From an uncultured Gammaproteobacteria bacterium (GTDB lineage: Bacteria; Patescibacteriota; Microgenomatia; CAYQLK01): a stretch of DNA of 64,000 nt. The notes under the pieces were generated by a model. The model was not told where the DNA came from. It ran no database searches and was given only the letters and a program-made list of their open reading frames with translations. The stretch is taken from NCBI GenBank assembly GCA_964445355.1, contig CAYUKQ010000004.1, positions 1,028-65,027 of the forward strand, given 5' to 3'. The translations under genes and the position numbers were made by a program. Of the stretch, positions 1,093 through 56,335 are shown piece by piece (position 1 is the first letter of the stretch; each line of letters begins with the position of its first letter).

Positions 1093-2085
1093 ATGGTAAG
1101 ACTTGCAACCAACAAGGATAAGACGAAGTTTGATAAATTCGCCGGTCACGTGATGCAGTCATGGCAATGGGGTGAATTCAGACAAGAAACTGGTAATCGG
1201 GTAATAAGGATTGTTGAAGAAGTTAAGAACGAGACTAATGTATTTACATTAACGGTTCATTCAATCCCTAAAACAAAATATTTGATCGGGTATATGCCAA
1301 AATCAACCTGGCCAAGTGACGATGTATTGAAATTCCTGCAGGACTTAGCAATGAAAGAAAATATTGCTTTTATTAAGATTGAGCCGGATGTAGAAAAAGA
1401 TAAATTTGAATTAAAAAAAACTAAAGTAAGAATCATCAAAAGCAGAAAGGATATTTTTGCAAAAAGTACATTCATCGTCGACCTTGGCAAGCCGGAAGAA
1501 GAATTATTCAGATCGCTTAATCCAAAGACCAGATACAATGTTCGGCTCGCGCAAAAAAATGCAATCAAGATAATAGTTAACGATGATATTGATGGCTTTG
1601 TAAAACTTCAAAAATTGACCGCCAAAAGGAATGGTTTTTATTTACACCCGGATAGCTATTATAAAAAAGTTTATGCCATGCTAAGTCGTCAAAATATGGC
1701 AAAAATAATTAGCGCTAAATACCAAGGGAAGTTGTTAACTTCTTGGGTTATTTTTCGATTCAAAGATACCTGGTACTACCCTTACGGCGGGTCAAGCTCG
1801 GAGTATCGTAATTTGATGCACTCCAATTTGGTCGCTTGGGAAGCAATTAAGCTGGCGAAGAATGAGGGCGGTAAATATTTTGATATGTGGGGAGCATTAG
1901 GCAAGAATCCAAACGAAAAAGACCCTTGGTATGGTTTTCATCGATTCAAGGCTGGCTACGGTGGTCGCCTGGTCGAGTATCCCGGTGCTTATGATCTGGT
2001 GGTTAACACAAAACTGTACACAATTTTAATAGCATTAGATCAGTTTCGTTGGGTATTACTTAGGTTAAAAAAAAGGGTGAGATAA
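1093..2085 (+). CDS. FemAB-family peptidoglycan interpeptide-bridge aminoacyltransferase
   Basis: 330 aa of typical FemAB/FemX length. The N-terminal Q-W-GEF-like segment and overall composition are FemAB-like. Family recognised by eye. Confidence 0.55.
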   Translation: MVRLATNKDKTKFDKFAGHVMQSWQWGEFRQETGNRVIRIVEEVKNETNVFTLTVHSIPKTKYLIGYMPKSTWPSDDVLKFLQDLAMKENIAFIKIEPDVEKDKFELKKTKVRIIKSRKDIFAKSTFIVDLGKPEEELFRSLNPKTRYNVRLAQKNAIKIIVNDDIDGFVKLQKLTAKRNGFYLHPDSYYKKVYAMLSRQNMAKIISAKYQGKLLTSWVIFRFKDTWYYPYGGSSSEYRNLMHSNLVAWEAIKLAKNEGGKYFDMWGALGKNPNEKDPWYGFHRFKAGYGGRLVEYPGAYDLVVNTKLYTILIALDQFRWVLLRLKKRVR

Positions 2086-2096: not shown

Positions 2097-2122
2097 TGTA
2101 GGTATTTGCAACTTAGAACATC

Positions 2123-2707
2123 TCAGCCTACCCGCTTCGGGAGATTTCGGCGACGAGGTTTTGGCTCTACCCGGTATTTCTGCAGGATCCGATCGACCCC
2201 TTCAACCAGTGCGCGCTTTTGGAGCGGTGGCAGGTCGGAAAAGCCGGGAGTGACCAGGGTTTGGTTTGGACGGATCTGTTGAGCGTCACTGTGCCAACCC
2301 GGGTAGTTGTCCAGCTCGTAAGCAAAGACGTCTTCGATCGCTGCGGCGATCTCGTTAATCTTGCTGTCCGGCAGGAGCTTGCGGCGTTCGTAAACAGGCA
2401 CAGGGCGGAAGGTGTTGATACGGCCTTGTGCCATTAGCCTCCAAACGCTCTGAAGCCAGTCAGTGACTTCATCGACGGCTTGTTGACGAGCAGATTGCTC
2501 ACTGGTTACTTTCATGGCAGCAGCGGCTCCACGGTGCGGATGATCTTGTCCTTCTGATCGGGACAGATGCGATCCGGACGCATCGGCATGGGCTGTCGCG
2601 GTGATGTAGGCGCGGTTGATGGTGTGGTTCGGGTCGGTGTTTGCGGTGCAGGCATACGGTTTTTCAACTCTCCTTTTTGGGCTTGTCTTCGATGCCGTCG
2701 CCATCAC
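2123..2707 (-). CDS. hypothetical protein (GC-rich island); the true start may be the internal Met (MKVTSEQ...)
   Basis: 194-aa ORF on the same strand as the 180-aa ORF and overlapping it, with a basic C-terminus (KPRRRNLPKRVG). No family recognised. Confidence 0.35.
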   Translation of the reverse strand: MMATASKTSPKRRVEKPYACTANTDPNHTINRAYITATAHADASGSHLSRSEGQDHPHRGAAAAMKVTSEQSARQQAVDEVTDWLQSVWRLMAQGRINTFRPVPVYERRKLLPDSKINEIAAAIEDVFAYELDNYPGWHSDAQQIRPNQTLVTPGFSDLPPLQKRALVEGVDRILQKYRVEPKPRRRNLPKRVG

Positions 2708-3206
2708 TGAGAAGCTCCCAGGTAGCAGGATCTTTGAGGTGTCTCCCGTCCGAGGCGGTGAACGGACGGTCGTGACTCGGTTTCAGCCAGGGCTGTACGT
2801 CGCGACTATCAGGTATCCCCAAATCGGGGAATTGAAAATCGCGAAGAAGTCTAAAGACTTTTTTGAGTAGCCCGACTCCGATATTGACCGTAGCATCCAT
2901 GCTCATGTCGCCGGTTTTGACCCTGCTCTTGATAAGCCAGAGATCGCGCTCACTGACGAGGAGTTCACGGTATTCGGATTCACATCCTTCGTAGAAGTCC
3001 CCGTTCGGCGGGACAAGCTCGTCGTACAGAAACCCCAGACGATAGAGAAGCGATTGCCATGATGATTCGTCGTCGAGATAGGTGGTCGTGCCACGTTGTG
3101 GCTCGATGTGATGAGAAACCGGGTCAGGTGGGTCGATGTTGTCCACAAGGTGGACTACTTCATAGACGTTGAGAAAAAGTCCTCGGACTTCTTCATTGCT
3201 AGACAC
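2664..3206 (-). CDS. hypothetical protein (GC-rich island, upstream gene of an overlapping pair)
   Basis: 180-aa ORF in a locally GC-rich segment with an acidic, plausible protein composition. It overlaps the downstream ORF by 44 nt. I recognise no family. Confidence 0.35.
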   Translation of the reverse strand: MSSNEEVRGLFLNVYEVVHLVDNIDPPDPVSHHIEPQRGTTTYLDDESSWQSLLYRLGFLYDELVPPNGDFYEGCESEYRELLVSERDLWLIKSRVKTGDMSMDATVNIGVGLLKKVFRLLRDFQFPDLGIPDSRDVQPWLKPSHDRPFTASDGRHLKDPATWELLSDGDGIEDKPKKES

Positions 3207-3309
3207 AGCAGGTCCTCCTTGAAAATATTAGCTTTGATGTTTTGGTTTAAGGTGCCAGAAAAGCGTGAAGCTTATACTGTTGGTCGGAATTATATACCTA
3301 ATATGCAAT

Positions 3310-6198
3310 TTAGGCTAATGAGGCGGGACAAATCTTATTAAATGGACAGTTAGTGCAACTGAATTTGTCGGGTTTTGGTGTAAAGTTTTCTGACTCTACC
3401 CCAGCTTTCACACTATTGATATCTTTGATTGCCGCCTGATAAAGTTTCTCGTCCGGTTTGCGCGAAGCATAAATATTATTTTCGACAAAATACAGCCCGA
3501 TCTCATCAGCGCTGCGATGGAATTTCTCACGATATGCCAAGGCATAAATTCTTAATTGAATCGAGCTATTCACACGCTCTTTTGCTTTTTTGAGATCAAT
3601 ATTTTCTGAAGTTTTGAAATCCATAATGGTGGTCTTACCACCCTGAGTAGTGATCAGATCAAATCGACCGGAAATAACCACGTTTTCGTGAACGAGCGTA
3701 AATTTATCTTCGATAATTAGATTGTCATAAGTAGTGAATTGGTGTTGATCGTAGAAGTTTGAAATTATTGTGTTACCTTTATTGAATATCTCAGACCGAT
3801 TTTGGCTATTGAAAAATCCAACATCTGAAAAATTGTCTTGATAAACTTTTTGCATTTCTTCGAGCGAAATTTGCTTACGTGATTTTTTTGATCGATAGAA
3901 TGCTTCTAGTGATTTGTGAACAGCAGTCCCTAATACCATTGCCCCGGTCTGGCTTTTGGGGAGATTCAAAACATAATTGTACTTATATTGAAGAGGGCAT
4001 GTTAAATAACTATTGATCGAATCTTGGTTGAGTTTAATTAGCCTACCTAAAGACGACTTCGCTGATTTTGTCTGATTAGGGATCAAAGTCAATTGTTCAT
4101 TTGAAGCAAATCGGTTGATCTTTTCAATGGCGTTTAGTTTTGCTGGTACGATCTCTAAATCCTGCTTTCCAAAAGATTCAAGTAAAAATTGTGACGGCTT
4201 CTTGGATCTTGCACCACCATAGTCTTCGGCCCAAGTCAGAAAGAGATGTTTTTTGGCTCTAGTAACCGCAACATAGAAAAGTCTTCTTTCTTCTTGTAGA
4301 TCCGCGAGTCTCGACGATGACTGTGCCTGATTCAGTAATGCTTCAGGAATAATAATTGGCTGGGATTTAGATCTGGTAGGAAAGCGGTCTGAAACTAAAT
4401 TGACAATAAAAACCGCATCAAATTCTAAACCTTTTGAGGAGTGAATGGTTAAGACATTAACCGCTTCAATCGACTGATCAAGAATGGCAGTAGTGGAAAT
4501 ATCACCAGATTCTTCGAGTAGTAGCAGAGTGGTAATGTAGTTAATAACTGAGGGATCAAGAGTTGAGGAAATGAATTCAGAAAGTTTGTCGAAGAATTTT
4601 GAAATGTTTTCAATTCTGCGAATATCTTCAACCTGGTCGGATTTTTGATATTTTTGGAAAATCTTGTGATCAACGATATATATATAGAGTAGTTCAGCAA
4701 CATTTTTTGTTGTTGAAAGGTTTGAATATTTATTAAGATCGTCAATTAATTTTTTAATTTTTTCGAGATTTTTATTGTCGATTTCAAAATCCTTAACTGT
4801 GTCTAATTGGTTTAATAGTGAAAATAATCCAATGTGCCGATTGCGTGAATACGCTGAGATTCTAATCATCAGACTCGCATCGAGGTGATAATAGTCGGAA
4901 ACAGCCAGGTGGTAGATACTTAAATCGTCTTCAAAATTAGCTAGGGATTTGAGAAAAAATATTAGATCCTGTACTTCAGAAGTTTGATATAGCGATGTTG
5001 TGCCGAAGGATTGCACGGGAACTCCAACTGCTTCGAGTGCCCTAATAAAAGGAATGGCGTGATTTGCTGCACGGGACAAAATTGCAATTTGTGAAAAATT
5101 AGTCCCCTGCTTATTAAGTTCCAGAGTTTTTTCAACCACAAGATCTACTTCGTCGGTTAGTGTGGTACCCCGAAGAACTTGAGGTTTATCTGTTGAGATA
5201 TTAGCCGTTGCAACTAATTTTTTGTTTATCCGATTAACATATTCTAGGCGGTCTGGATTGTTGTTTTGAATAACATTGTAGGCCAGGTCAAGTATTTTTT
5301 GATTTGAGCGATAATTTTTGATTAAGACAAATTCTTTGGCTTGGGGATATTTTTTTTTGAAAGATAAAATATTCGAAATTGATGCACCCCTAAATCTATA
5401 TATTGACTGGTCATCGTCTCCAACCACCGTGAGGTTTTGGTGTTTTGAGCTTAGTAAGTTGACCAGGTCGTTTTGTGCACTATTGGTGTCTTGAAACTCA
5501 TCGACAAGAATATATTTGTACATTCTCTGATACCGACTGAGAATTGAAGGGTAATTGTTAAATACTGTTCTGACTATGTAAAGTAAGTCAGAAAAATCAA
5601 CGTAATTACCAAGTCTTTTGAGTTCTTCGTATTTAATAAAACTATTGGCGAGCTCCAAATACTTTAAAGACTCGTCAGAATCTTCGATGGTGTGTGCAAA
5701 ATCCAGAAACTGTTGCGGGTTGATATTTTCTTCTTTGAGATTACTAAAAAGGGAGGTTAAATCTTTCAGAAATTTGAGGGGGTTATTCACAGGTCGGAAA
5801 TAATTAAGATTCAGATCGTAGATCCTCGAACGCAGAAATAATATTTGTTGGTTTTGAGTTAATATCCGGTAATCAGGCGATAAACCGACGTCGTAAGCAA
5901 TGTCGCGCAAAACAGAATCAGCAAATGCATGAAATGTGTATATGGAAATAGAAGAAAAAACATCAGGCAAAAGATCATAAACCCTAAAGTCCATTTCTTC
6001 TGATGCTTTTTCTGTAAAGGTTAGAGCAAGTATCTCCTCGGGAAGAGCGAGTTTTTGATCAATCAGATAGGCAATTTTTCTGGTAATTACTGCAGTCTTG
6101 CCCGTTCCGGCTCCAGCAACGATAAGAATTGGTCCTTGAGTCGTTGTAACTGCTTTTTTTTGCTCAATATTGAGTCCTTTTAGTAAGTCGCGCTTCAT
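3310..6198 (-). CDS. UvrD-like SF1 helicase fused to a C-terminal PD-(D/E)XK nuclease with a Cas4/AddB-type Fe-S cysteine cluster (AddA-like helicase-nuclease)
   Basis: Walker A (AGAGTGKTAV), motif III (VVGDDDQSIYRFRGA) and motifs V/VI (IHSSKGLEFDAVF, VAVTRAKKHLFL) are present. The C-terminus carries C-x2-C-x5-C (CTNCPFNKICP). Confidence 0.8.
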   Translation of the reverse strand: MKRDLLKGLNIEQKKAVTTTQGPILIVAGAGTGKTAVITRKIAYLIDQKLALPEEILALTFTEKASEEMDFRVYDLLPDVFSSISIYTFHAFADSVLRDIAYDVGLSPDYRILTQNQQILFLRSRIYDLNLNYFRPVNNPLKFLKDLTSLFSNLKEENINPQQFLDFAHTIEDSDESLKYLELANSFIKYEELKRLGNYVDFSDLLYIVRTVFNNYPSILSRYQRMYKYILVDEFQDTNSAQNDLVNLLSSKHQNLTVVGDDDQSIYRFRGASISNILSFKKKYPQAKEFVLIKNYRSNQKILDLAYNVIQNNNPDRLEYVNRINKKLVATANISTDKPQVLRGTTLTDEVDLVVEKTLELNKQGTNFSQIAILSRAANHAIPFIRALEAVGVPVQSFGTTSLYQTSEVQDLIFFLKSLANFEDDLSIYHLAVSDYYHLDASLMIRISAYSRNRHIGLFSLLNQLDTVKDFEIDNKNLEKIKKLIDDLNKYSNLSTTKNVAELLYIYIVDHKIFQKYQKSDQVEDIRRIENISKFFDKLSEFISSTLDPSVINYITTLLLLEESGDISTTAILDQSIEAVNVLTIHSSKGLEFDAVFIVNLVSDRFPTRSKSQPIIIPEALLNQAQSSSRLADLQEERRLFYVAVTRAKKHLFLTWAEDYGGARSKKPSQFLLESFGKQDLEIVPAKLNAIEKINRFASNEQLTLIPNQTKSAKSSLGRLIKLNQDSINSYLTCPLQYKYNYVLNLPKSQTGAMVLGTAVHKSLEAFYRSKKSRKQISLEEMQKVYQDNFSDVGFFNSQNRSEIFNKGNTIISNFYDQHQFTTYDNLIIEDKFTLVHENVVISGRFDLITTQGGKTTIMDFKTSENIDLKKAKERVNSSIQLRIYALAYREKFHRSADEIGLYFVENNIYASRKPDEKLYQAAIKDINSVKAGVESENFTPKPDKFSCTNCPFNKICPASLA

Positions 6199-8357: not shown

Positions 8358-10601
8358 ATGAACAAAATTGGATCTCCACAAAAAAAAACTCAACAAAAGC
8401 AAAGGAGACTACACAAAAGTGTTTCTGAAAAAGTCGGATTTGGAATCTTGTGGATTTTTTTTCCCCCTAAAGACAGAGTACTAAGAGGAACACTGTTTAG
8501 GATATCAACATTTGTTTTTTTGGTTCTGGTAGGGGTGTTTTGGTTCATTACAAAAGACTTACCTACAAAAAATCTTGGTGATAGAGATATTGACTTGACT
8601 ACAAAAATTTACGACCGTAACGGCAAGCTTCTTTATAATATATATGCGGACAAAAATAGAACTTTGCTTCCGTTCGATCAAATCCCGCAATATATTAAAG
8701 ATGCTTCAATTGCCATTGAGGATAAAGATTTTTATAAACACAAGGGATTTGATATTTTGGGAGTAATTAGAGCTTCGATGGCGATTGCTTTTAAACAAGA
8801 ACTTCAGGGTGGTTCGACGATTACTCAACAACTCGTTAAAACTGCGTTTCTTACACCAGAAAGAAATCTGACAAGAAAAATTAAGGAGTTGTATTTAGCC
8901 TATCAGGTGGAAAGTAAGTTCAGCAAAAACCAAATCTTAGAAATGTATCTTAATGAAGTGCCGTATGGAGGAACCGCATATGGCATTGAAGCGGCGAGTC
9001 AAACATATTTTGGCAAAAGGGTAACCGAGTTAAACCTTGCCGAGTCGGCACTGATCGCTGGGTTGCCGCAAAGTCCGACAACCTACTCACCTTTTGGAAA
9101 TAATCCTAAGCTAGCAAAACAAAGACAATCCGAAGTCTTAAGGAGAATGCTTGAAGAAAAATTTATCACTCAACAGGAACACGACCAAGCCATATCAGAG
9201 GTGCTTGTCTTTGCCCAGCCAAATATAGATATTAAGGCTCCACATTTTGTCCTCTTCATCAAGGATCAATTGGCACAAAAGTATGGAGAAAAATTGGTTG
9301 AACAGGGTGGATTAAAAGTTACTACCACTCTTGATTTGGATATACAGGAAATGGCTCAGAATACCGTTACTACTGAAGTTGCCAAACTAAAAAACTACAA
9401 TGTTGGTAATGGTGCGGCAATGGTAACCGATCCAAAAACAGGAGAAATTCTTGCTATGGTTGGATCGAGAGATTATTTTGACACCGCAAATGATGGAAAT
9501 GTTAATGTTACAACCTCACTGCGACAACCCGGGTCATCAATTAAACCAATAAATTATGCTGGTGGATTAATGAACGGCCTAACGGCGGGGACAATTATTG
9601 TTGATGGACCTGTTACTTTTAAAGGCAGCCCCCCTTATACACCAAAAAACTACGATGGAAAATTTCATGGAGCAGTTACCTTAAGAAAATCATTAGCTAA
9701 TTCTTATAATATTCCTGCTGTTAAGGTACTCGCTTATAATACTGTGCCATTTATGTTGGAACTGGCACAAAAAATGGGTATTTCAACTTTTGGAGACCCG
9801 TCTAGATATGGTTTGTCTTTAACCCTTGGGGGCGGTGAAGTAAAAATGATTGACATGACGACAGCATTTAGCGCCTTTGCTAATAAAGGTATTACCCACG
9901 AAGCGTATGGAATAATCAAAGTTGAAGATAAGGACGGAAAAGTACTAGAAGAACATAAAAATGATGAGGGAAAGCGAGCAATTCCTGAAGAAATTGCCTT
10001 TATTATTTCTCATATTTTGGCTGATAATCAGGCCCGAGCGGATGCATTTGGCACAAATAGTCAGCTTTATATACCAGGCAAGGTTGTCTCAGTCAAAACA
10101 GGGACGACAGATGATATTAGAGATAACTGGACGATTGGATATACACCATCATATTTGACGGCAGTGTGGGTTGGAAATAACGACAATAAACCATTAAACA
10201 GATCACTAACTTCCGGAGTTACAGGAGCCGCACCAATTTGGAATAAGATAATGAAAAATCTTTTGAAGAACAAAGAAATTGAAAATCTTGTTGCGCCCGA
10301 TAATGTGGTATCAAGAGCGACATGCGTGGGTCCAGGTGAGAAAAAAGATGATGGTACTGTGAGCTGTAAATCACAAATAGAATTTTATGTAAAAGGAACA
10401 GAGCCGAAAAACGAAGATTCCAAATTTGTAAAGGGCGATGTGTGGTTCGACCCAAAAACGAGAAAAATTGTTGCACCAGGAACAGCTGAGGCAGTTGAAA
10501 AAAAGGACGCAGTTGTTGTTACCGACTTTTATCAGCCTGGAGAAGGATATTGTGTAAACTGTATTGAAGAGGAAAAACCTGAAGATCAGGTTCAAAACTA
10601 A
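8358..10601 (+). CDS. class A penicillin-binding protein (bifunctional glycosyltransferase/transpeptidase, PBP1A-type)
   Basis: GT51 motifs (ITQQLVK, RKIKELYLAYQVE...EVPYGG) and transpeptidase motifs (SSIKP, KTGTT), with an N-terminal TM. Confidence 0.85.
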   Translation: MNKIGSPQKKTQQKQRRLHKSVSEKVGFGILWIFFPPKDRVLRGTLFRISTFVFLVLVGVFWFITKDLPTKNLGDRDIDLTTKIYDRNGKLLYNIYADKNRTLLPFDQIPQYIKDASIAIEDKDFYKHKGFDILGVIRASMAIAFKQELQGGSTITQQLVKTAFLTPERNLTRKIKELYLAYQVESKFSKNQILEMYLNEVPYGGTAYGIEAASQTYFGKRVTELNLAESALIAGLPQSPTTYSPFGNNPKLAKQRQSEVLRRMLEEKFITQQEHDQAISEVLVFAQPNIDIKAPHFVLFIKDQLAQKYGEKLVEQGGLKVTTTLDLDIQEMAQNTVTTEVAKLKNYNVGNGAAMVTDPKTGEILAMVGSRDYFDTANDGNVNVTTSLRQPGSSIKPINYAGGLMNGLTAGTIIVDGPVTFKGSPPYTPKNYDGKFHGAVTLRKSLANSYNIPAVKVLAYNTVPFMLELAQKMGISTFGDPSRYGLSLTLGGGEVKMIDMTTAFSAFANKGITHEAYGIIKVEDKDGKVLEEHKNDEGKRAIPEEIAFIISHILADNQARADAFGTNSQLYIPGKVVSVKTGTTDDIRDNWTIGYTPSYLTAVWVGNNDNKPLNRSLTSGVTGAAPIWNKIMKNLLKNKEIENLVAPDNVVSRATCVGPGEKKDDGTVSCKSQIEFYVKGTEPKNEDSKFVKGDVWFDPKTRKIVAPGTAEAVEKKDAVVVTDFYQPGEGYCVNCIEEEKPEDQVQN

Positions 10602-44297: not shown

Positions 44298-45314
44298 TTA
44301 GTTTGTTGCTTCTACGTTCAGAGTGATAAGGTATTCCTGATTATCTTTAGAGATTGCTGTGCCTGAGAATGTAAAGAAAGGGTAAATAGTTTGAGGGTTT
44401 TTGGTGGTTGGAAAAAAGTAGCTTGTTTGGACAGAAGTGATATTGATGTTTTTGTAGTTACTTGTGTAATAAGCTTCCTCCTCGTCTTTTGTTCCAGATA
44501 ATTTACGGATCTGTGTAATTGTGGATTGGTTTTTAGCTAGTTTGCTTACGGCTTGTTCCAGAGAAATTAACTGGACAGTGGTAGTGGGATTGTAGGTGAA
44601 TACAACAAGCGAAAAGCTGGTAATTGATCCTGATTTGTCGAAAGTAATTGAACCAACCGATGTGTTTGGGGTACGGTCTGTGGCCAAAAAAACCGTTTCG
44701 TGTTTGGTGGTAATGTCAAAACTGATCGTGTCAGCCAGATCAAAACTATCGACTGTTTGATCATTAAGATTGGTCGAGCGATAAAATTGCGGCGCAGAAA
44801 GTTGTAAGTTGGAATTATTACCCACTTTATTTAAGGTGTTTTGAGCTTGATCGGTAATTAGTTCTAGGGTAGAGATTTGCTGGTTGGTTTGGGGGTTGCG
44901 GTAAGTAATAGTAAGATCGTCGATCGTTAATGTTCTGTTTTGGTTAATGTAAACTTTTCGAGTGCCAAGGTCTGTTTGGAGTTCGCGAAAATCTGCTGGG
45001 TCGAAGTTGAACATATTTGCAATATTGTCGGAAGCGATTGGGGTTTTGGTAATCGATAATATTCCTAATGATTTCGGTGGAGTGTAACTGTAGACATCTG
45101 GGTCGATTTGGTATTTTTGTGGTTTATTTGCAAAGGGATCATTAACTGGTTTCGATGATTCAGGAATTGAACTGGTTTTGGTTGGTTCGGGCTTAGTTGG
45201 TTGAGTGTTTGGGTTGAATATTAAATAAAGAAAAATAAAGATTATTAGAAAGACACCAAAAAAGATAAATATCCAAAAATTCTTTAGTTTAGCCCTAAGT
45301 TGTGTAAGCGTCAT
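44298..45314 (-). CDS. membrane-anchored extracytoplasmic protein (hypothetical; last gene of the T4SS-like block)
   Basis: N-terminal TM followed by a T/N/Q-rich, beta-rich domain. Confidence 0.4.
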   Translation of the reverse strand: MTLTQLRAKLKNFWIFIFFGVFLIIFIFLYLIFNPNTQPTKPEPTKTSSIPESSKPVNDPFANKPQKYQIDPDVYSYTPPKSLGILSITKTPIASDNIANMFNFDPADFRELQTDLGTRKVYINQNRTLTIDDLTITYRNPQTNQQISTLELITDQAQNTLNKVGNNSNLQLSAPQFYRSTNLNDQTVDSFDLADTISFDITTKHETVFLATDRTPNTSVGSITFDKSGSITSFSLVVFTYNPTTTVQLISLEQAVSKLAKNQSTITQIRKLSGTKDEEEAYYTSNYKNINITSVQTSYFFPTTKNPQTIYPFFTFSGTAISKDNQEYLITLNVEATN

Positions 45315-45320
45315 ATATTT

Positions 45321-48300
45321 TTAGTTTACTGCAGCGCAACTGCCTGAACACCCCCGGACATCGACAGGAATGTATGGCGGCTCCATTCGGAGGCCTCGAA
45401 ATTCATAGTGAAGATGTGTGCCTCTAACATCAGGAGGAAGTATATATCCCGTGAATCCCTCATAACCAACTATTTGACCTTTAGTTATTACGGCTCCGAC
45501 TTCGATGCCTGGGCCAAACGAATCCATATGACCATAGATTGCTCTGAAGGATGTGCCGTTGCAGGTACCGCTTAGGATGACTGTTAAGCCGGTTCGGCCG
45601 GTGATCGGATGGTTACCAGCCGGATCTGTGTATTTATACTCAACAACTCCATTAAACGTGGCCAGTAAGCTATCGGTGTAGAAAGTAGCAACATCTATGG
45701 CTTCGAGAGATGAGTGTGAAACCAACCCTCCCGGTCCTTGTGTGACATTGCCTGATCCAGCCGCGGGCCAGCCCGACGGACAGTCTCCGGCGGGTGTGCC
45801 AATAAAGACTGATGAAAGGTCGTTTGCAGAGGAAGAAACCGAGTTGGTAAATCCTCCTCCAGGTGCCGGGATGGGGATTATGTTGGGGTCAAATGATTTA
45901 AAACTGATTGAAAATTTATTACTAATACTTGAGTCCTGAAAAATTGTCTCGTTCGGAATTGGAAGATCGTATGAAATACTGGCTGTTTGATTTGGATTGA
46001 GAGTGGTTGGACAGTTGATGGTTGGGCTGGTTAGGTTGCGAATATTTCCGGATTTAGTTACGTGGGTGATTGTATCAGTGCAGACAATATCGTAGATGGG
46101 TTGGTTTTGGGCACTAATATTGACAGTGTAGGTGACGGTTTGGGGAAGATCCGAATTTTCTAGTTTGATGGTTTTAGCGGGTCCGAGAGATTTAGCGTTA
46201 ACGCTGGCAAGCTTTTGAATTTGTATGTAAGTGTTTGATGTTTCACCTTCTGTAGCGTCACCAGGTAAAACGATTTGTTCCGGAAGGCTTGGGTTGGTAA
46301 ATAAAGCAGAAGAGACTGTGCTGTAGCTTAATATGGAAAATGTGGTAATACTCCCAACTGTGGCGGTCGGGATCAGGACAGCAGGGTTGGTTGCTACACC
46401 TACAAGTGCGTTAGTGCCACTGCTAACAAGTCCACCAATTGCTGATGCACCAGGAATTCCGCTAATAAAACCACCGACGGCCCCCGCAGCAGACCAGGTA
46501 AACGATGCAGCTGCTGCACCCGCCGACCAAATCGCTGAGGCTGCACCAGTGGCCCACCCTGAAACTGCCCCCCAAATCTTGGGAAGGTAAAACATAAGAT
46601 TATTAACAACTGTGGCGTAACCGGGGAAGTGGTTATAAAGCCAGACAGATGCTGTTCCACCAAGGAAACCGCCGATTAATGCACCTACTGGCCCACCGAG
46701 CGCGAACCCGATCGCTGCACCAACAGCGAATCCAACCGCAAAAGCGACGATGTTGGCAAGTATCCAAAGAAGGAACATGTAAGCGAGGAAAGCGAGGGTT
46801 GCGAGAATATAGGCGATCTGTTTTTTGTATTTTGCTGCCAGCATTAACCCGGCCTGCACAAGCAGCGAAATACCTCCGGTGCCAGCGCCGACGGCTGCAG
46901 AAATACCCAGTTTTGCTCCAACTTTTAGTGCGCCTTTTTTAGCAAATCCTTTGAGTTTGCCTTTGGCCCGACCGGCTGAAAATTTTTGTGAGAAGGAGAA
47001 AAATGATTTTTTTGGTATAAAATTGGCCGATCGAGTGATGGTTTGTCCGGCGGGGCTTTGAGAATAGTATGAACGGGAAAAATTACCCATTCTCCATACA
47101 GAATGTTTTTTGGGGGCATTAAACTCTGGAATCTGTTCATATAATTCCAGTTCGTCAGAGTAGTTTTTTAGGAGAATGGATTGACCAACGCTTATAGATT
47201 CCTGCTCATTTATTTCCCGAATCGATCTGGACAAAAAGGATCTTCTCTCTGGATTAGGGTTAAGACTTGCGGACAAAAACTCTTCATAACTTTGCTGTTG
47301 TCTTTTAGGATTATCCATGAGCGAGGCAAATGCGTGATTTTCGGCGGCGGTGATTTCTGAAGATTCAGCCTGATATTGTCCTTGAGAGTAAATATTGACA
47401 GGCTGAAGAATTTCGTGACTGACGACATCGGTAACGAAGCGGGGGGCTGCTAAGGTAAGAAGTGTTTTGTCGTCAAGTTTTGAGTCGAGGTGTTTGAGGT
47501 AATTCTGGTAGCTGTTTTCTTCTGCGGAGCGAAGATTCTGAAGGAGACTTTGTGGGTTAAGAGGGATGTTCTTATCAAAATCTTCCTGTGTGTTTTGAAT
47601 GATTTGATTGGCAATGTTGGGTAGGTATATTTGGTGAATTGCTTCAGAGATAATTTGTTTGTTTTTTGCTGTAGCTGTTTCCGGGTTGATTTTTAATCCA
47701 GTGTCGATTGCTTTGTCGATGATTTGTGAGTGTGTTGATGGAGATGATTGGGGATCGGCTAGTGTGGAGATTAGGAGAATTTGTGATGCGGTATTGGCTT
47801 GGGTTACCGCTGGATGATTGGTTTCAGATACTTGGTCGACTGCGACTAAAAAGTCATCAGACTTGGTCAATTTTTTGGCGCCGTCTGTGGTCTCGGGTTC
47901 TTTGAGCGAATGTTCGTAGATTTCCGACGCCAAAACGGGCGACAATTCCTGGTAGTCGGCTGTGTGAGTGGAATAAATGATCTGGGTCGCGACATTGTTG
48001 GCGATTTTTCCAGCGATACGTTGTTGGTTGGCTGCGTCGATTTTGGCCTTGAACAGCGTGGCTGAGATGGCTGGTGATTGGATAAGTTGAGTGATGGCGT
48101 TGGTGAGTTCGGTGTGTGTGAGTGTGACTGTATCCTCGAGTTTTTTAGTTGTGGATCTGGTCGAACTTGATGAAGGTTTTGGATTAGCTGGCTCACCAGA
48201 TTGTTTTGAGGGTGATTTGGAGCTATTGTTGGGCAGGGTAATAATTCGAGTGGTCGTTTGGGGTAAGGTAATGGGTTGCTGGATCGGTAGGGGGGCGGTT

Positions 48301-48836
48301 GGGTTTACTGATTGAGGTGTTTGGGTCGTGGGGATTGGATTAGTAATCTTAATTGTTTTTGGTAGTTCGATAGGGGTGGGAGGGGTTTGGTTATTTTGTC
48401 GAATTTGTTTAATAGCGTTGTCGACTTCTTCAATAACCCCAGCGCTGCTAAGTGTGCGTGTTTGGGTTGGAGAATCCGGGTTTTGGAGTTTGTGAATAAT
48501 AGGAATGACAGATTGGTTGGTTAGTTCAAACTCTTTTAGATTGGCTTGAATTAGGGTGGTAAAGATTTGTTTAAGGACAAGGATGTTTTGGCCGATGTTT
48601 ATAATTTCGTATTTGTCGGCAATATTCTGGATAGTGATTAGCGTTTGTTCATAGCTTGCGTCTGGGAATAAATCTTTGAATTGTTCGTTAAACTCTTTCT
48701 CGCTTGGGAAGCGGGGTGGTTGACCGTCTTTGGGTGATTTTTCAAAAAAATCTAAAACCCAATCAGCTAAACGAAATTGGAGTAATTGGTCAATGGCGGT
48801 TTTGGGTTTGGATGGTTCAACCTGACTTGTTGACAT
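45321..48836 (-). CDS. giant polytopic membrane protein with a C-terminal M23/LytM peptidase domain (PrgK-like T4SS-associated cell-wall hydrolase candidate)
   Basis: 1171 aa with a P/T/Q-rich N-terminus and a central Gly/Ala-rich multi-TM region. The C-terminus has HxxxD...HLHYE (GYEGFTGY...GTHLHYEF). Confidence 0.6.
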   Translation of the reverse strand: MSTSQVEPSKPKTAIDQLLQFRLADWVLDFFEKSPKDGQPPRFPSEKEFNEQFKDLFPDASYEQTLITIQNIADKYEIINIGQNILVLKQIFTTLIQANLKEFELTNQSVIPIIHKLQNPDSPTQTRTLSSAGVIEEVDNAIKQIRQNNQTPPTPIELPKTIKITNPIPTTQTPQSVNPTAPLPIQQPITLPQTTTRIITLPNNSSKSPSKQSGEPANPKPSSSSTRSTTKKLEDTVTLTHTELTNAITQLIQSPAISATLFKAKIDAANQQRIAGKIANNVATQIIYSTHTADYQELSPVLASEIYEHSLKEPETTDGAKKLTKSDDFLVAVDQVSETNHPAVTQANTASQILLISTLADPQSSPSTHSQIIDKAIDTGLKINPETATAKNKQIISEAIHQIYLPNIANQIIQNTQEDFDKNIPLNPQSLLQNLRSAEENSYQNYLKHLDSKLDDKTLLTLAAPRFVTDVVSHEILQPVNIYSQGQYQAESSEITAAENHAFASLMDNPKRQQQSYEEFLSASLNPNPERRSFLSRSIREINEQESISVGQSILLKNYSDELELYEQIPEFNAPKKHSVWRMGNFSRSYYSQSPAGQTITRSANFIPKKSFFSFSQKFSAGRAKGKLKGFAKKGALKVGAKLGISAAVGAGTGGISLLVQAGLMLAAKYKKQIAYILATLAFLAYMFLLWILANIVAFAVGFAVGAAIGFALGGPVGALIGGFLGGTASVWLYNHFPGYATVVNNLMFYLPKIWGAVSGWATGAASAIWSAGAAAASFTWSAAGAVGGFISGIPGASAIGGLVSSGTNALVGVATNPAVLIPTATVGSITTFSILSYSTVSSALFTNPSLPEQIVLPGDATEGETSNTYIQIQKLASVNAKSLGPAKTIKLENSDLPQTVTYTVNISAQNQPIYDIVCTDTITHVTKSGNIRNLTSPTINCPTTLNPNQTASISYDLPIPNETIFQDSSISNKFSISFKSFDPNIIPIPAPGGGFTNSVSSSANDLSSVFIGTPAGDCPSGWPAAGSGNVTQGPGGLVSHSSLEAIDVATFYTDSLLATFNGVVEYKYTDPAGNHPITGRTGLTVILSGTCNGTSFRAIYGHMDSFGPGIEVGAVITKGQIVGYEGFTGYILPPDVRGTHLHYEFRGLRMEPPYIPVDVRGCSGSCAAVN

Positions 48837-48896
48837 TATTAACTAATAATAAACCTTGTTAGGCGAAATATTCCGAGGCTGTTTAACATAAGCGAG

Positions 48897-50759
48897 TTAC
48901 TGAATTATTTCCTGTGTGGCAGAAATTGGTTGCGAGTTGGTCTGATCTGTATCGGTTTGTGTAGTGCCGTCTATTTGGTTGGCAAGAATATCCTTAGGAT
49001 TGGACGTGACAAGCTTGTCTTCGTTTGGTGAGGCAATAACGCGCATTGCCACGTGTGAGCTACCGGCGAAAAACAATCCTTCACCAACGTCGGCACCGAG
49101 CAATAGGTGTTTTTCCCCATCAGTTAGGTAAAAGACTTCTGCAAGCTTGTCGATTGCCGCCGCAGACTGTTTGAGTAGTATTTGAATACTTGAGTTGGTA
49201 ACAATCGCCTTTCCGTATTCAGTACTGAGGAAGTCTTCGACATCCTGAGTAATGGTTGTTAATCCAAGGTAGTATTTGCGTGCACGCTTGGCGATCGAAT
49301 ACATAAAACTCGCGGAATCCGGATATTGCATCATGTACCAAGCCTCGTCGACGATGAGAATGCGTCGTTTTAGGTCTCTTTTTACTCTGGTCCAGATAAA
49401 ATCAAGAATAATGTACATGGCGATTGGGCGAAGTTCGGCTTCGAGGTTTTTGATCCCAAATACAGTAAAAGTATTACGTAGGTCCATATTAGAATATTGG
49501 TCAAAAATTCCAACCAAAGATCCTTTGACAAATTTTTCAATTCTTTCTGCAAGTGTTTTGGCTTGTGGTTCTTCCATGCCGATTAATACTTTGTATAAGT
49601 CTTCCATTAGCGGAGGTTGAAGTGTTTGTGTTTGAGGACTGTCAGCAACGATACCTTTGTTTTTGTAGGTTTGGACAAGTGCCCGATCCAGGATTGCGTC
49701 TTCGGTGGCGGATAGCTGTCCCATAATGACGCGGAATAAGCCGTGCAGTGAGAGGATTTTGAGTCCTAGTTCGTTTTCTTCTTCGTACGTTCCTGAGAGG
49801 TCGAAGGGGTTGATCTTGGTGTCGGACTTGAAATCGAAACTGATATATTCTCCGCCGATGGCGTTGCAGAGATTTTTGTACTCTTCTTCAGGGTCAATAA
49901 TGATGATTTCTGTGCCGAACATTAAATATCTTAAAGCTTCGAGTTTGGTCATGTAGGATTTTCCACCTCCGGATTTGGCAAAAACGACGGTGTTAGCGTT
50001 TTCTAGACTGAAACGATCAAAGATGATGAGTGAACCGTTGTGTTCATTAAGTCCATACATGATCCCCTCGTTGCTGGTTAAAGAGCTTGAAGTGAAAGGA
50101 AAGGTTGTTGCCAGTGAGGTGGTATCCATGTTGCGAGTAACAAGTAGTTTGTCGTGACCGTAAGGCAGGGTTGTTTTGAAGCCATCTTCCTGTTGTAGTG
50201 TGGCGTGTTTGGAGATAACTAAAATAGAACCTAACAGACTCTCAACCTGTTTAGTAATATTTACCAATTCCTCTTTGGTTTCTGCAGGGATGGTGATGTA
50301 GAGTCCAAATTGGAAGAATTTTTCTGCACCTTTGGCGATATTCTGCTGGAAGGTTCGAGCGTCATCAAGTGTAACCTCAAGGTTTGGGTCAATGATCTTG
50401 CCGCGCTGGACGTCCGTGGAGATCGTGGCTTCCATTTCGCCGATTTTGCGCTTCATGTCCTGAAGAACGGCTTGTGCGTCAACCGGATAGTGAAACATTG
50501 ATATTTCGAGTGTGTGGTTGAAATTGATTAATGGAGAGAGCCAGTTGGCGCCGACATAGCGCGGATAGCCAATTATAAAGAGTGTTTTGAAGTATGTTTC
50601 ACCAATTTTGATGAAGTCAAAGTCGACTTCAATGGCTGGTGGTGCAATGATATCGCGAACAGAAACCGTACCTTGCGCGACAGCTTTGGCTTGTGCTGAG
50701 ACTAATTCGGGAGCATTTTGAGGTGATTGGTTGGGATTTTTTTTGCCGAATAGTTTCAT
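48897..50759 (-). CDS. VirB4/TrsE/PrgJ-family type IV secretion ATPase
   Basis: KIGETYFKTLFIIGYPRYV...WLSPLINFNHTLEISMF is VirB4 N-region-like. Walker A (FAKSGGGKSY) and Walker B (ILIVDEAW) are present. Confidence 0.8.
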   Translation of the reverse strand: MKLFGKKNPNQSPQNAPELVSAQAKAVAQGTVSVRDIIAPPAIEVDFDFIKIGETYFKTLFIIGYPRYVGANWLSPLINFNHTLEISMFHYPVDAQAVLQDMKRKIGEMEATISTDVQRGKIIDPNLEVTLDDARTFQQNIAKGAEKFFQFGLYITIPAETKEELVNITKQVESLLGSILVISKHATLQQEDGFKTTLPYGHDKLLVTRNMDTTSLATTFPFTSSSLTSNEGIMYGLNEHNGSLIIFDRFSLENANTVVFAKSGGGKSYMTKLEALRYLMFGTEIIIIDPEEEYKNLCNAIGGEYISFDFKSDTKINPFDLSGTYEEENELGLKILSLHGLFRVIMGQLSATEDAILDRALVQTYKNKGIVADSPQTQTLQPPLMEDLYKVLIGMEEPQAKTLAERIEKFVKGSLVGIFDQYSNMDLRNTFTVFGIKNLEAELRPIAMYIILDFIWTRVKRDLKRRILIVDEAWYMMQYPDSASFMYSIAKRARKYYLGLTTITQDVEDFLSTEYGKAIVTNSSIQILLKQSAAAIDKLAEVFYLTDGEKHLLLGADVGEGLFFAGSSHVAMRVIASPNEDKLVTSNPKDILANQIDGTTQTDTDQTNSQPISATQEIIQ

Positions 50760-50766
50760 AGTTTGT

Positions 50767-51765
50767 TTAGCTTGTCGGAGATTTTAAGGCGTCTAAGGCT
50801 TTTAGAATATCAGGATCGATTGTTTCATTAGAGCTGGATGTGGGTGGTGTCTGACTAATAGCTGTGTTGCTGGTCGGTACTTGTTGGGGTGCCAAGTTGA
50901 AGGTTGATTGGTTGGCTATTGGTGAGTAGATTGTTTGGGTCGGTTCGGTTGGAGCCTGGTTGATTTGGGTAGTTTGAGGTTGTACTGGGGGGATATTTTG
51001 TATTGCCGGTTGTGGCTGATCAACAATTGGTTGTGCTGGGATGGTTGGGTTTTGGGTAATGGCAGCAGGTTGTGTAGGAAGTTCTTCGATCGGAGCTGAG
51101 ACTGCAGGCGTGACGATTGGTGTGGTGTAAGAGCCGGCCGCCTCGGTAATTTTTTGCAGACCGACCTCGCTAGGATTATAAATGTCGAAATACAATTCGA
51201 TAAGCTCTTGGGTGGTAAGCTGAAGTGTTTTGATGCCGAGTCTGCCAAATTGTTGGAATAAATGATCGCGTTTGGGATAGAGGTTGGTTTTGACGGTTTC
51301 GATATAAGTTTGCATATGGTTGCTGTCACGCTGGATGTTGCCGAGTGCGGCTCCTTTTACTCCGAGTTCAAGCGGATTAAATGGGATAATGACATAAAAT
51401 TTTTTTTCCAAAACGTTGTTTTGTTTAACAATTCCCTGGATGAACTGTAAGTATTCGTAAATTTGGCGTTTAATGTCTGGGTTGGCCTGGTGCGCTTCGG
51501 CTTGAGTAATAAGTTGGATGTAGGCGCTAAGATCGATTTTTTTGCTACGAATAACAATTTGTGTGGTGAAGTTTAGCGAGTTAAGCAGTCCCGCGTAAGA
51601 ATAAATAATCGAGTCCTGCTCATCGACCGAGAGTAGTTGAAAGTTGACGGCTGCGGTTTGGATGACGATGGCTGCTGAATTGTCCTTCAGAATTACAACA
51701 TCATCGCGAATATCAACAATCTCTAGATGTTCCTGGGTTGATGATTTAATCGGGGCAGATTTCAT
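50767..51765 (-). CDS. VirB4 N-terminal-domain-like protein with a P/Q/T-rich tail (possible split VirB4 partner)
   Basis: HLEIVDIRDDVVILKDNSAAIVIQTAAVNFQLLSVDEQ resembles the extreme N-terminus of Gram-positive VirB4/TraE proteins. Only 7 nt separate it from the ATPase gene. Confidence 0.45.
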   Translation of the reverse strand: MKSAPIKSSTQEHLEIVDIRDDVVILKDNSAAIVIQTAAVNFQLLSVDEQDSIIYSYAGLLNSLNFTTQIVIRSKKIDLSAYIQLITQAEAHQANPDIKRQIYEYLQFIQGIVKQNNVLEKKFYVIIPFNPLELGVKGAALGNIQRDSNHMQTYIETVKTNLYPKRDHLFQQFGRLGIKTLQLTTQELIELYFDIYNPSEVGLQKITEAAGSYTTPIVTPAVSAPIEELPTQPAAITQNPTIPAQPIVDQPQPAIQNIPPVQPQTTQINQAPTEPTQTIYSPIANQSTFNLAPQQVPTSNTAISQTPPTSSSNETIDPDILKALDALKSPTS

Positions 51766-51767
51766 GA

Positions 51768-53768
51768 TTAGGATGGTAAGTTTTTAGCTTTTATGGCAAA
51801 CGGATCGAGAAGTTTACCATGTGTTTCGAAGGCAATTGTATCAAAGTTTAGGCCTTCGAAATCGGTCTGAATTGTGTAGGTACCGTTGGGGAGCGGGGTG
51901 ACAGAGATAAATTGACCCAGGCCGTTGGTCTTGAATGCCCGAACAGGTTTGCCGGTGTGATCATAAACAGAAATCAGTGCGCCTTCGACCAGTCCGCCGT
52001 GATTGTCGTAGACAACACCATTGGGGGTGTTGGGGTGTTCGGAAAGATTGATTTTGACTTCGGCTTTGGGTGCTTGCTGGGCTTGGTTTTTTTGGTAGTT
52101 AAAAGGCTGAACGATACTGGCGTGCTTAGGGGCGGGATTGGAATCGGTTTGTACAGGAGCGGTTTGGGGTTGATCTTTGGGTTTTTCGACTAAATTTGGA
52201 CTTGGGGGGGCGATGAAATCCTTTGATGATTTTTGTTCAACCCGACCGGCTTTTAAGGGTTCAAAATCTTTAACTTTTTTGATTTGTTCAATAGCTATTC
52301 CCCCAGCGACCTTGATCGGTTGAATTGAAGGTGCAGTTTGGGGTTCGGTTTGCTCGAAGCGTTTTTTTAGTTCGCTGCTTACGTCGAATTGTCTCTCTCC
52401 TAGGATCGGTAGACGCGGTTTGGAGAAGTCGGGTGGACGATTTTTTAGTTTGCGAATCCTGGTATCGCCAATTCCTTGAAGGAATTGGAGCTCTCGACCA
52501 GGAATCATAATGACATTGTCACCAAAGTTAATATCGGAGGCGATTTGAGCTGAGATCGAAATTTGGCTATTAAGAGCAGAAAAATTGCTGGAGGGGTGCG
52601 GAGAAACGGTTGTTTTTTTGCCGAGGTTGGGGAGTAGGTGTTTTTGAAAAAGATCGGGAGTTGAGGTGTTGATACTTGATTCGGAGAGGTCTTTGTTTTT
52701 TTTGAATTCTTCCCAAGCTTGGGAAAATTTCTGCTGTTCTTGCTCGATACTGGCTTGTTGTTTAAGTATTTCAGCTTCTTTGGTTTTGATTTCTTCCTCA
52801 ATTTTTTTCTGAGCTTGTAGAACTTGGTCTAGTTCAGCAAGTTTTTGTTTGGAATCTTCGATCGTTTTGGCCCCATGCTGATTCGGGGCAGTGTTAGCGT
52901 GTTGGCTGTAGGGTAAGATTTTGGTATCAATATTAGGATTTTGCTGTGGTGACACACTGACGGTTGTGTTTTCGGGTCTTTTACTGATTATGATTTGAGG
53001 AGGAGTGGTCGGGTTTTTGTCAGATAATTGCTTGCTGAGCAGATCTAATTTTTTCTGTTTTTCTTCTTCGAGTTTTATCTTGGTTGTTTCAAGCTCTTTT
53101 TGTTTTTGGATCAAGGCTAATTCTTGCGCCTTAATCTCTTCAGCTTTGGCTTGAAGCTGAGACGATTTTGGTGCAGCTTGAATCGTGGCGTGTTTCTCCT
53201 TGATAGGGGCTTGGTAGGGGGAATAGGGGTTGAGTTGGTTGGCAAGTTGGTTTTGGGGCGGGATAGAAGACAATGGTGCGATAGTGGAGGCAAGATTACT
53301 GATTTCGGTTAGGTATTGGTTCTCTTGTTGGTCGAGAGAGTTGGTCGATTGAGTATGCGATTGTTTCGATAACAGTGTTTGTAAATCAGCGCGACTGAGT
53401 CGATTACCGGATAGTGTTTGTATGGCCGGATTAACAGGCGCGGGTTTTAGGAAATTAGCTTCAAGAAAGTAAGGAACGTGATTATCCTTGATCCAAATTC
53501 TCTGTGTAGGTCTGCTGATTGATCGGATAAAAGCTACGATCCATTTGTCTAGCGGTCTGCCCTGCAGTGGTACGGCGGCAAAAGTTATTCCGCCGATTAC
53601 AAAGATAGCGGCTATTGGGTAAGCGACGGTTTTTGGAAGAGGTGAAAAGTAGAAAATTGCAGCAATAATTCCTCCAAAAGCAACATAAATGAATTGGCGA
53701 ATGGTAAATGGCCCAAAAAGTTTGAACTCAAAAGTGGTTATATTTTGCGGTACGGCATGCTCTTCCAT
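51768..53768 (-). CDS. PrgI/VirB3-like two-TM N-terminus fused to a coiled-coil/low-complexity region and a C-terminal beta-sandwich domain
   Basis: TEFKLFGPFTIRQFIYVAFGGIIAAIFYF is PrgI-family-like. The middle is a Q/K/E-rich coiled coil and the C-terminus is prealbumin-like (GTYTIQTDFEG). Confidence 0.55.
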   Translation of the reverse strand: MEEHAVPQNITTFEFKLFGPFTIRQFIYVAFGGIIAAIFYFSPLPKTVAYPIAAIFVIGGITFAAVPLQGRPLDKWIVAFIRSISRPTQRIWIKDNHVPYFLEANFLKPAPVNPAIQTLSGNRLSRADLQTLLSKQSHTQSTNSLDQQENQYLTEISNLASTIAPLSSIPPQNQLANQLNPYSPYQAPIKEKHATIQAAPKSSQLQAKAEEIKAQELALIQKQKELETTKIKLEEEKQKKLDLLSKQLSDKNPTTPPQIIISKRPENTTVSVSPQQNPNIDTKILPYSQHANTAPNQHGAKTIEDSKQKLAELDQVLQAQKKIEEEIKTKEAEILKQQASIEQEQQKFSQAWEEFKKNKDLSESSINTSTPDLFQKHLLPNLGKKTTVSPHPSSNFSALNSQISISAQIASDINFGDNVIMIPGRELQFLQGIGDTRIRKLKNRPPDFSKPRLPILGERQFDVSSELKKRFEQTEPQTAPSIQPIKVAGGIAIEQIKKVKDFEPLKAGRVEQKSSKDFIAPPSPNLVEKPKDQPQTAPVQTDSNPAPKHASIVQPFNYQKNQAQQAPKAEVKINLSEHPNTPNGVVYDNHGGLVEGALISVYDHTGKPVRAFKTNGLGQFISVTPLPNGTYTIQTDFEGLNFDTIAFETHGKLLDPFAIKAKNLPS

Positions 53769-56311: not shown

Positions 56312-56335
56312 CTCCAAAAAGATTAAATTATTTCC

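Follow-up and report, generated by a model that had tools for sequence, protein, structure and literature searches.

A GC-rich three-gene cassette of probable phage origin in the chromosome of a Curtissbacteria-like bacterium

We describe a GC-rich island of about 1.2 kb in a 64-kb stretch of bacterial DNA (contig CAYUKQ010000004.1; the whole stretch is called the window below). The island consists of three minus-strand cistrons, here named A, X and B, rather than of two overlapping open reading frames (ORFs), as a first, sequence-only reading had it. Relatives of the window carry the same cassette at the same site, a more distant relative has the site without the cassette, and the same module recurs in metagenomic contigs with phage-type gene content. 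We consider it very probable that this corrected anatomy holds and that the ancestor of one Curtissbacteria-like subclade of the Candidate Phyla Radiation (CPR, or Patescibacteria) gained A-X-B from bacteriophages. A function in phage–host conflict is a far more tentative proposal, and the explanation as a whole, as a compromise between these two judgements, appears to us only somewhat probable.

The sequence-only reading had noticed an abrupt change of base composition, and windowed profiles of GC and of GC at third codon positions (GC3) bear this out. Positions 2123-3206 have a GC content of 0.552, compared with 0.391 for the remainder of the 64 kb. The 1-kb segment starting at 2101 (GC 0.554) is the maximum of the entire window, ~3.7 standard deviations (SD) above the mean (0.393; SD 0.043), and the second-ranking region reaches 0.49 at most. 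The shift is sharp on either side, near 2100-2125 and near 3200, and includes GC3, which is 0.58-0.62 in the island genes and 0.32-0.39 in the flanking genes. Every relative contig fetched shows the same difference, with a cassette GC of 0.47-0.59 against a background of 0.36-0.39; GC3 in the cassette is 0.50-0.65 across all lineages and 0.25-0.39 in the flanks. The GC3 excess is present at four-fold sites and in both two-fold classes, and is not seen in the S20, TIM or thioredoxin genes of the host.

The features of the cassette and its borders are given below; related loci are referred to by numbers of the form L001, and lengths of proteins are in amino acids (aa).

2099-3309, minus strand: the whole inserted cassette of ~1.2 kb, made up of the presumed promoter region and A-X-B and running from the stop codon of the helicase-nuclease gene to the ancestral terminator (basis: the empty site in L022, the terminator alignment and the GC profile).
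3289-3294, minus strand: a -10-like hexamer, TATAAT, inside the invariant TTAGGTATATAATT upstream of A; unchanged in 12 of 12 aligned cassette-bearing sequences.
3213-3219, minus strand: the Shine-Dalgarno sequence AGGAGGA of A, within the conserved AAGGAGGA, 6-7 nt before the start codon in all lineages.
2664-3206, minus strand: gene A, 180 aa, acidic (pI 4.7), of an uncharacterised family; supported by homologues, a ratio of nonsynonymous to synonymous divergence (dN/dS) of 0.10-0.15 and substitutions dominated by third positions.
2668-2675, minus strand: the Shine-Dalgarno sequence AAGGAGAG of X, within the last codons of A; GGAG or GGAGG stands 7-14 nt before the conserved ATG of X in every lineage.
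2512-2655, minus strand: gene X, 47 aa, MPAPQTPTRTTPSTAPTSPRQPMPMRPDRICPDQKDKIIRTVEPLLP, in the third frame; open and conserved in all Curtissbacteria lineages, with a dN/dS of 0.03-0.27.
2512-2515, minus strand: the ATGA overlap of the X stop and the B start, read from the sequence; CCATGA is invariant in all Curtissbacteria lineages.
2123-2515, minus strand: gene B, 130 aa, of an uncharacterised family; all homologues begin MKVT, and dN/dS is 0.10-0.17.
2074-2097, no strand assigned: a hairpin and T-run, the ancestral bidirectional terminator common to the cassette and the convergent FemAB gene (basis: a terminator scan, and a homologous hairpin both at the L022 empty site and after B in L009).

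The 180-aa acidic ORF of the sequence-only reading is a real gene, A, as its homologues and the purifying selection on it indicate; its start codon is GTG in the window and ATG in relatives. The second ORF, of 194 aa, proved to be an over-extended form of B. Its first 64 codons hold stop codons in relatives L001 and L005, and all homologues start at the internal MKVT. Since the true B is the 130-aa gene, the reported 44-nt overlap between the two ORFs does not exist, and the count of two ORFs had missed the 47-aa gene in another frame. The basic C-terminus ascribed to the second protein is found in this lineage, but it is not a trait of the family, as the phage versions are acidic (pI ~4.7). 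The longest-ORF rule thus created a false 194-aa protein and concealed the real gene X, which is a pitfall for annotation. The same over-extended B ORF occurs in a public gene call (P0006, ENA, 193 aa) from a 99%-identical strain. No public gene call for X was returned at the Curtissbacteria loci, and in L016 and L017 there is an opposite-strand 49-aa call instead.

In the window, A and X are separated by a gap of 8 nt. X has a Pro/Thr-rich N-terminal half and a conserved C-terminal motif, and the ATGA by which it meets B is of the kind that could allow translational coupling. B is predicted to be all-helical (AlphaFold2 model, mean predicted confidence pLDDT 63.5; 58.5 for A) and carries the conserved motifs DPFYxR, YPGYH..AQ and A.VQGIDRI. 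Its residues E67, H75, Y42, R44 and D108 show little or no variation and are located in Pro/Gly-rich loops, which suggests a binding pocket or an active site. Upstream of A, a promoter function of the TATAAT hexamer would fit its invariance; there is no good -35 element upstream of A, and a consensus scanner called no full sigma-70 promoter at this hexamer. The last ~24 nt of the helicase-nuclease gene and the bases that follow (3310-3335, ATTTGTCCCGCCTCATTAGCCTAAAT) are nearly invariant across the cassette-bearing lineages, synonymous positions included, with one T/C difference in L005-L007; the empty-site locus L022 differs there. This stretch may be part of the cassette promoter region.

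Several comparative observations show that the three frames are translated. Among 7 distinct Curtissbacteria-type sequences, each of the three frames has its substitutions mostly at third codon positions; for X, the window and L001 differ by 0.06, 0.04 and 0.45 per site at the first, second and third codon positions, respectively. All dN/dS values were obtained by the Nei-Gojobori method. Moreover, the ORFs of A, X and B remain intact over 35-80% protein identity. Judged by these patterns of substitution, A, X and B are real protein-coding genes under purifying selection in every lineage.

None of the three resembles a known family, as the sequence-only reading had already reported for its two ORFs. 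The window proteins have no match to a Pfam, NCBIfam, PHROG or PADLOC family, and the same is true of 32 A and 43 B homologues. Searches of the PDB with single sequences and with deep profiles gave matches at chance level only (CypD, E 1.7; Nrd1, E 0.13), and neither A nor X showed a DNA-binding domain, a helix-turn-helix (HTH) or another domain typical of regulators. A repeated strand-helix pattern in the model of A had suggested an internal duplication, which was rejected (hhalign probability 0.4%). A literature search found no paper on the A-X-B module or on Curtissbacteria phages. New in detail are the three protein families, the conserved overlapping micro-gene X and the foreign GC content kept over a long time.

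The cassette occupies a single chromosomal site. Homologues of A and B in a database of 5.8 billion proteins form 5 and 8 clusters, respectively, one of which is named Candidatus Curtissbacteria. In every contig fetched (up to 90 kb, with one locus on a 660-kb contig) the gene order is RmuC / helicase-nuclease / A-X-B / FemAB / UvrD / thioredoxin / TIM. L001-L021 and L025, from many unrelated samples, all have exactly the synteny RmuC/helicase/A-X-B/FemAB/UvrD, and a single A homologue was indexed in 56 blocks of the collection. In the window itself, the neighbours are a FemAB-family gene (1093-2085, plus strand) and a gene combining a UvrD helicase with a PD-(D/E)XK nuclease (3310-6198, minus strand), confirming the position that had been read from the letters. 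At L019-L022, gene content and synteny match a Curtissbacteria-type locus, and the public label Gammaproteobacteria is probably a default or wrong.

The site is empty in L022, a more distant relative (helicase 60% and FemAB 73% identical), where the stop codons of the convergent genes are ~15 nt apart. This spacer region holds a hairpin terminator homologous to that after B. Because the hairpin is also present at the empty site, it is ancestral, and the cassette would have entered between the helicase stop codon and the terminator. A hairpin terminator does therefore mark one edge of the island, as the sequence-only reading had stated, but it is not part of the acquired DNA. We favour an insertion in the clade on this comparison, loss in L022 being the formal alternative.

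The proposal that the island is a horizontally acquired cassette is thus supported by the empty site, and by phage contigs (described below) that contain the same module at GC contents of 0.43-0.66, bracketing that of the island. Relatives do carry the same genes at a similar local GC, but as clade-specific accessory genes and not as core genes. In its deviant composition, its empty site in a relative and the foreign context of its homologues, the cassette resembles other horizontally acquired islets; mobility genes or target-site duplications are missing at its edges. No integrase or transposase is present among the ORFs of the window, and the repeats at the edges are short and at chance level, with no convincing direct repeats or att sites. 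The suggestion of a phage remnant is apt as to origin. It does not hold in the sense of a decaying fragment, since no other phage gene adjoins the cassette, whose flanks are RmuC, helicase-nuclease, FemAB and UvrD in all lineages, and since all three cassette genes, in contrast to those of prophage remnants, are intact and under purifying selection.

After its arrival the cassette seems to have been inherited with its flanks. Between the window and L005, A and B are 0.67 and 0.70 identical, and the helicase and FemAB are 0.74 and 0.71 identical. That cassette identity tracks flank identity argues for vertical inheritance, and the Curtissbacteria copies of B are monophyletic in a neighbour-joining tree; both observations fit one acquisition in the distant past. 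Evolution is faster in the cassette than in its flanks (flank dN/dS 0.02-0.06), and in places the cassette departs from them. L025 has flanks as close to the window as those of L005, but its A is only 38% and its B only 52% identical. Between L009 and L018, A and FemAB are 99% identical and B only 88% (synonymous divergence, dS, 0.59), and between L009 and L016 the dS is 2.8 for FemAB, 0.44 for B and 0.29 for X. These discrepancies suggest that lineages have swapped parts of the cassette by recombination. An additional AT-rich gene of 677 aa lies between B and FemAB in L005 (11101-13134, minus strand), L006-L008 and L025 (9112-11145). The window lacks this gene, for which neither Pfam nor PADLOC gave a match. 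Its presence in some lineages means that the slot between the helicase and FemAB took insertions more than once.

The evidence for a phage source comes from distant homologues. A profile of A, searched against 1.84 billion representatives, returned 48 proteins at E<=1e-3, every one of them metagenomic and without a name, and a diverse B profile returned 104 clusters. On long contigs, the surroundings resemble those of tailed phages. Short contigs with GC contents of 0.49-0.66 hold the same A-X-B module. In L026 (GC 0.505), genes for DNA polymerase A, Dam and a ribonucleotide reductase with an intein are followed by A-X-B, which faces tail-fibre-like genes; the B of this locus matches the window B profile with an hhalign E of 2.5e-21. 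L037 and L038 (GC 0.575) have a DUF5681 protein, a membrane protein, A-X-B and a large terminase (phrog_38, E 1.8e-84), the B stop overlapping the terminase start. In L041 (GC 0.43), a tape measure protein, an Amidase_2 endolysin, a small membrane protein with a transmembrane (TM) segment and a Cys-peptidase-like protein precede X-B without A, and an unrelated Cys-rich ORF (9716-9880) stands in place of A. On the contig of P0141, a late block ends with genes of 145, 47 and 120 aa beside a cI-like repressor, the 47-aa gene being X, here called as a gene. L039 is a further phage-like contig with A-X-B. The DUF5681 protein is found upstream of A-X in one phage sublineage, at 40-44% identity (L037 8861-9511, L034 71-538 and L032 3-464); a DUF5681 protein was among those recovered when the structural proteome of Salmonella phage STGO-35-1 was analysed (PMC8954984).

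Every phage-type locus examined contains X, which is 47-52 aa long and has a common plan: MP..., a Pro/Thr-rich stretch, and DPxK[LI]CPxQKxx[IL]xRxxAPxLP followed by the stop codon. In the phage contigs (L026, L037, L039 and others) and in L025 it starts inside the 3' end of A, in the other frame. Its partners are less constant. L032, L034 and L035 have A-X without B, and in L034 the B slot, 12 nt after the X stop, is filled by a gene for an Acb2/Tad1 hairpin protein (PF24729, E 5.4e-11, 43 bits, cutoff 27). In L029, a GIY-YIG-like ORF, IYGLADPISGDIRYIGKS (1457-1950; Pfam E 0.0099, below the cutoff), lies between X and B and resembles a free-standing homing endonuclease. Some homologues of B have a fused C-terminal Cys-rich domain of YHS/TRASH type (PF04945, E 1.5e-10; L030 497-1102, and P0150), a fusion that hints at metal or ligand binding. 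Small Cys-rich ORFs of the zinc-ribbon-like form CxxC...CxxC directly follow B in L031 (964-1188) and L036 (719-946).

We propose the following model. In phages, A-X-B would be an accessory unit at the ends of late or packaging operons, with X as the constant element and A (upstream) and B (downstream and tightly coupled to X) as exchangeable partners. The module would most likely act in phage–host conflict, as counter-defence or exclusion, and X would be a small partner or regulator made together with the downstream cargo protein. The unit would have been inserted between the convergent helicase-nuclease and FemAB genes, and would since have been inherited with its flanks under purifying selection, with some internal recombination, the bacterial copy being domesticated for the same conflict. 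It is because an Acb2/Tad1-type gene can fill the B slot that a conflict role seems the most likely one: Acb2 and Tad1 are phage sponges for cyclic-nucleotide immune signals (PMC12393519, PMC12043709), and anti-defence genes are reported to cluster together in hotspots of phage diversity (bioRxiv 10.1101/2025.06.06.658234).

Such a model has close parallels in known systems; as a kind, an accessory cassette of phage descent that has become fixed in a bacterial chromosome is known. Like phage morons and the accessory cassettes of hotspots, A-X-B is a compact unit of deviant composition with its own promoter-like element and terminator. It lies at the ends of late or packaging operons, beside lysis or terminase genes, in the phage contigs, and its parts can be exchanged: X is followed by B or by an Acb2/Tad1-like gene, and L029 has the homing-endonuclease-like insertion. 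Unlike morons, it also resides in a cellular chromosome with no surrounding prophage and with stable inheritance across a clade, and its proteins fall in no moron or anti-defence family described so far. Anti-CRISPR loci of the aca type and loci with Acb2/Tad1 genes similarly combine a conserved small companion (here X, usually with A) with a variable cargo slot; by contrast, no HTH or other regulator domain is detectable in X or A, B has no homology to Acb2/Tad1, and the anti-defence role is putative here.

The resemblance to Rz/Rz1 spanins is more superficial. X is small and Pro-rich, has one conserved Cys and overlaps the 3' end of A in another frame, the 'overlapped' arrangement of spanins (the window has the 'separated' one), and in L041 the module follows an endolysin and a small membrane protein. 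However, the maxima of 19-residue Kyte-Doolittle windows are 0.95 for A and -0.45 for X, and the Cys of X stands in the context R-I-C or K-L-C after polar sequence, with no lipobox. A spanin reading was thus rejected, there being no TM segment, signal peptide or lipobox. CPR bacteria are generally described as being without an outer membrane, which is a further difference from the spanin setting.

A number of points weigh against the model. The link to counter-defence rests on positional replacement in one sublineage (L034/L035), and B is not homologous to the protein that replaces it: hhalign of the B profile against the L034 protein gave a probability of 0.8%, and none of 43 B members matched PF24729, so that B as a relative of Acb2/Tad1 was rejected. 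Neither the window nor the divergent members matched any PADLOC defence model. Any function of the three proteins is putative and read from context, and it is hard to see why a bacterium would retain a counter-defence module from a phage. Scans of IMG/VR and tblastn searches of GenBank phages yielded no relatives, and so the assignment to phages rests on the gene content of 4-5 metagenomic contigs. Lastly, the model does not account for the persistently high GC3. A bolder version, in which A-X-B is an undescribed phage module, rare but widespread, X is both a marker and the controller or partner of swappable counter-defence cargo, B is a new anti-defence family, the unit has been domesticated by the CPR bacterium and its foreign GC is actively selected, strikes us as unlikely. 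If it were true, X would serve as a new marker by which anti-defence genes could be found through guilt by association, and the cassette would be a rare case of long-term resistance to compositional amelioration.

A different role for X is compatible with phage origin and concerns only this gene. X could act mainly as a leader (upstream ORF) that regulates what follows, rather than as a stable partner protein, with its conserved C-terminal ~22 residues (ending Pro-x-Leu-Pro-stop) setting downstream translation through the ribosome tunnel or by termination and reinitiation. X is indeed the sole constant element, standing before B in most loci and before a different gene in L034, and in the loci read it always stops 0-12 nt from the next start. 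Only its C-terminal half is conserved, the N-terminal half being compositionally biased and overlapping the tail of A in phages, and in L026 the few bases read upstream of B contain no obvious Shine-Dalgarno sequence. Curtissbacteria B, on the other hand, has a plausible GGAG 11 nt before its start, so that coupling is not strictly required, and a hairpin sequestering the B start is not supported (the fold z-score of 2480-2700 is +0.40). The invariant Cys and several conserved charged residues of X also resemble a binding peptide more than the known arrest motifs. We therefore give the leader function a rather small chance.

A toxin-antitoxin (TA) or abortive-infection (Abi) module, raised by the sequence-only reading and here meaning, for example, that B is the toxin and X or A the antitoxin, has a slimmer chance. 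As in type II TA operons, the genes are small and co-directional, a short gene overlaps a ~130-aa gene by a 4-nt start/stop, and the locus is accessory and horizontally acquired; in addition, the invariant polar residues of B (E67 and H75, plus Y42, R44 and D108) could form an active site. However, there are three genes, without toxin or antitoxin homology, and similarity to TA or defence families is missing in Pfam, NCBIfam and PADLOC, divergent members included. The lack of a DNA-binding domain in A or X speaks against it as well, as does the distribution, in which the cassette holds one fixed syntenic position clade-wide instead of being patchy. Finally, the phage copies lie in what appears to be their native setting, within late or packaging operons.

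The composition of the cassette poses a separate problem. If the high GC simply reflected a recent transfer that had yet to ameliorate, with nothing maintaining it, one might point to the GC-rich phage relatives (0.49-0.66 for most) and to the variation of island GC3 among lineages (0.50-0.65). But the cassette is older than the split of lineages whose flanks are saturated at synonymous sites. In these deep lineages the proportion of synonymous differences (pS) is 0.70-0.84, yet the GC3 of the cassette stays high, and it is 0.60-0.61 in the still more divergent cassette of L025. When synonymous third-position changes in the cassette were polarised with outgroups, 118 went from GC to AT and 99 from AT to GC, near balance, compared with the ~2.8:1 expected from decay toward the host value, and the GC-to-AT rate per site was about half that of the flanks; as polarisation was by parsimony, which is biased in saturated AT-rich data, these figures are indicative only. 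The excess also extends over all degenerate codon classes. Recent transfer is thus an improbable account. Expression-linked codon bias of the host was rejected as the cause, because S20, TIM and thioredoxin lack the GC3 excess and resemble the flanks, and structured RNA or mRNA structure was rejected by the Rfam and folding results given below. Something maintains the GC of the cassette; selection might act on its synonymous sites, or conversion from a GC-rich pool might recur. If our reading holds, synonymous sites ~20-30 points above the host despite saturation would make the cassette an unusual case among transferred DNA, which is expected to ameliorate.

It seems very improbable to us that B (with A and X) assists in DNA packaging, for instance as a divergent small terminase, and that the chromosomal copy is what remains from a packaging module. 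B is small and helical. In L037/L038 its stop overlaps the large terminase start, a place normally taken by the small terminase, and no recognised small terminase is present there. However, B is not beside a terminase in L026, L039, L041 or the P0141 contig, and is replaced by the sponge-type gene in L034. It has no sequence or fold similarity to known small terminases, and a lone packaging subunit under selection would have no obvious role in a cell.

There is practically no chance that the island is an assembly or contamination chimera, as the sequence-only reading had allowed, or a structured non-coding RNA instead of protein-coding DNA: the composition does change abruptly on both sides, and GC-rich islands in AT-rich genomes are often structured RNAs, but comparative evidence rejects a chimera, in that both junctions recur identically in independent assemblies of at least eight diverged lineages from dozens of samples, and, as to RNA, the island has no Rfam match at the gathering threshold or at E<=1, the folding energies equal those of dinucleotide shuffles (z = 0.40 for 2480-2700 as above, and -0.09 and 0.07), and the substitutions have a clear codon periodicity.

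Elsewhere in the 64-kb window, in which ARAGORN found no tRNA gene and Rfam no family at the gathering threshold, the last ~19 kb (noted at 44298-58045) has a GC content of 0.43-0.49, compared with 0.33-0.40 before. This part encodes proteins of the conjugation/type IV secretion type, namely a TraG/VirB4-like P-loop ATPase (48897-50759), a PrgI-family protein (51768-53768) and a 1171-aa protein with an M23 peptidase domain (45321-48836), and it includes several large ORFs without a Pfam match. This GC-richer part may be a second, larger acquired region.

If our reading of the cassette holds, three uncharacterised families would join the accessory genes of phages, X being of a type that gene callers usually miss. 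The positional link to Acb2/Tad1 would then provide a testable lead, with B as counter-defence cargo and X as a marker of such loci. The cassette could also inform on selection at synonymous sites in CPR bacteria. For these organisms, it would mean that a reduced genome has long kept a phage-derived operon, implying a useful function where spare genes are few.

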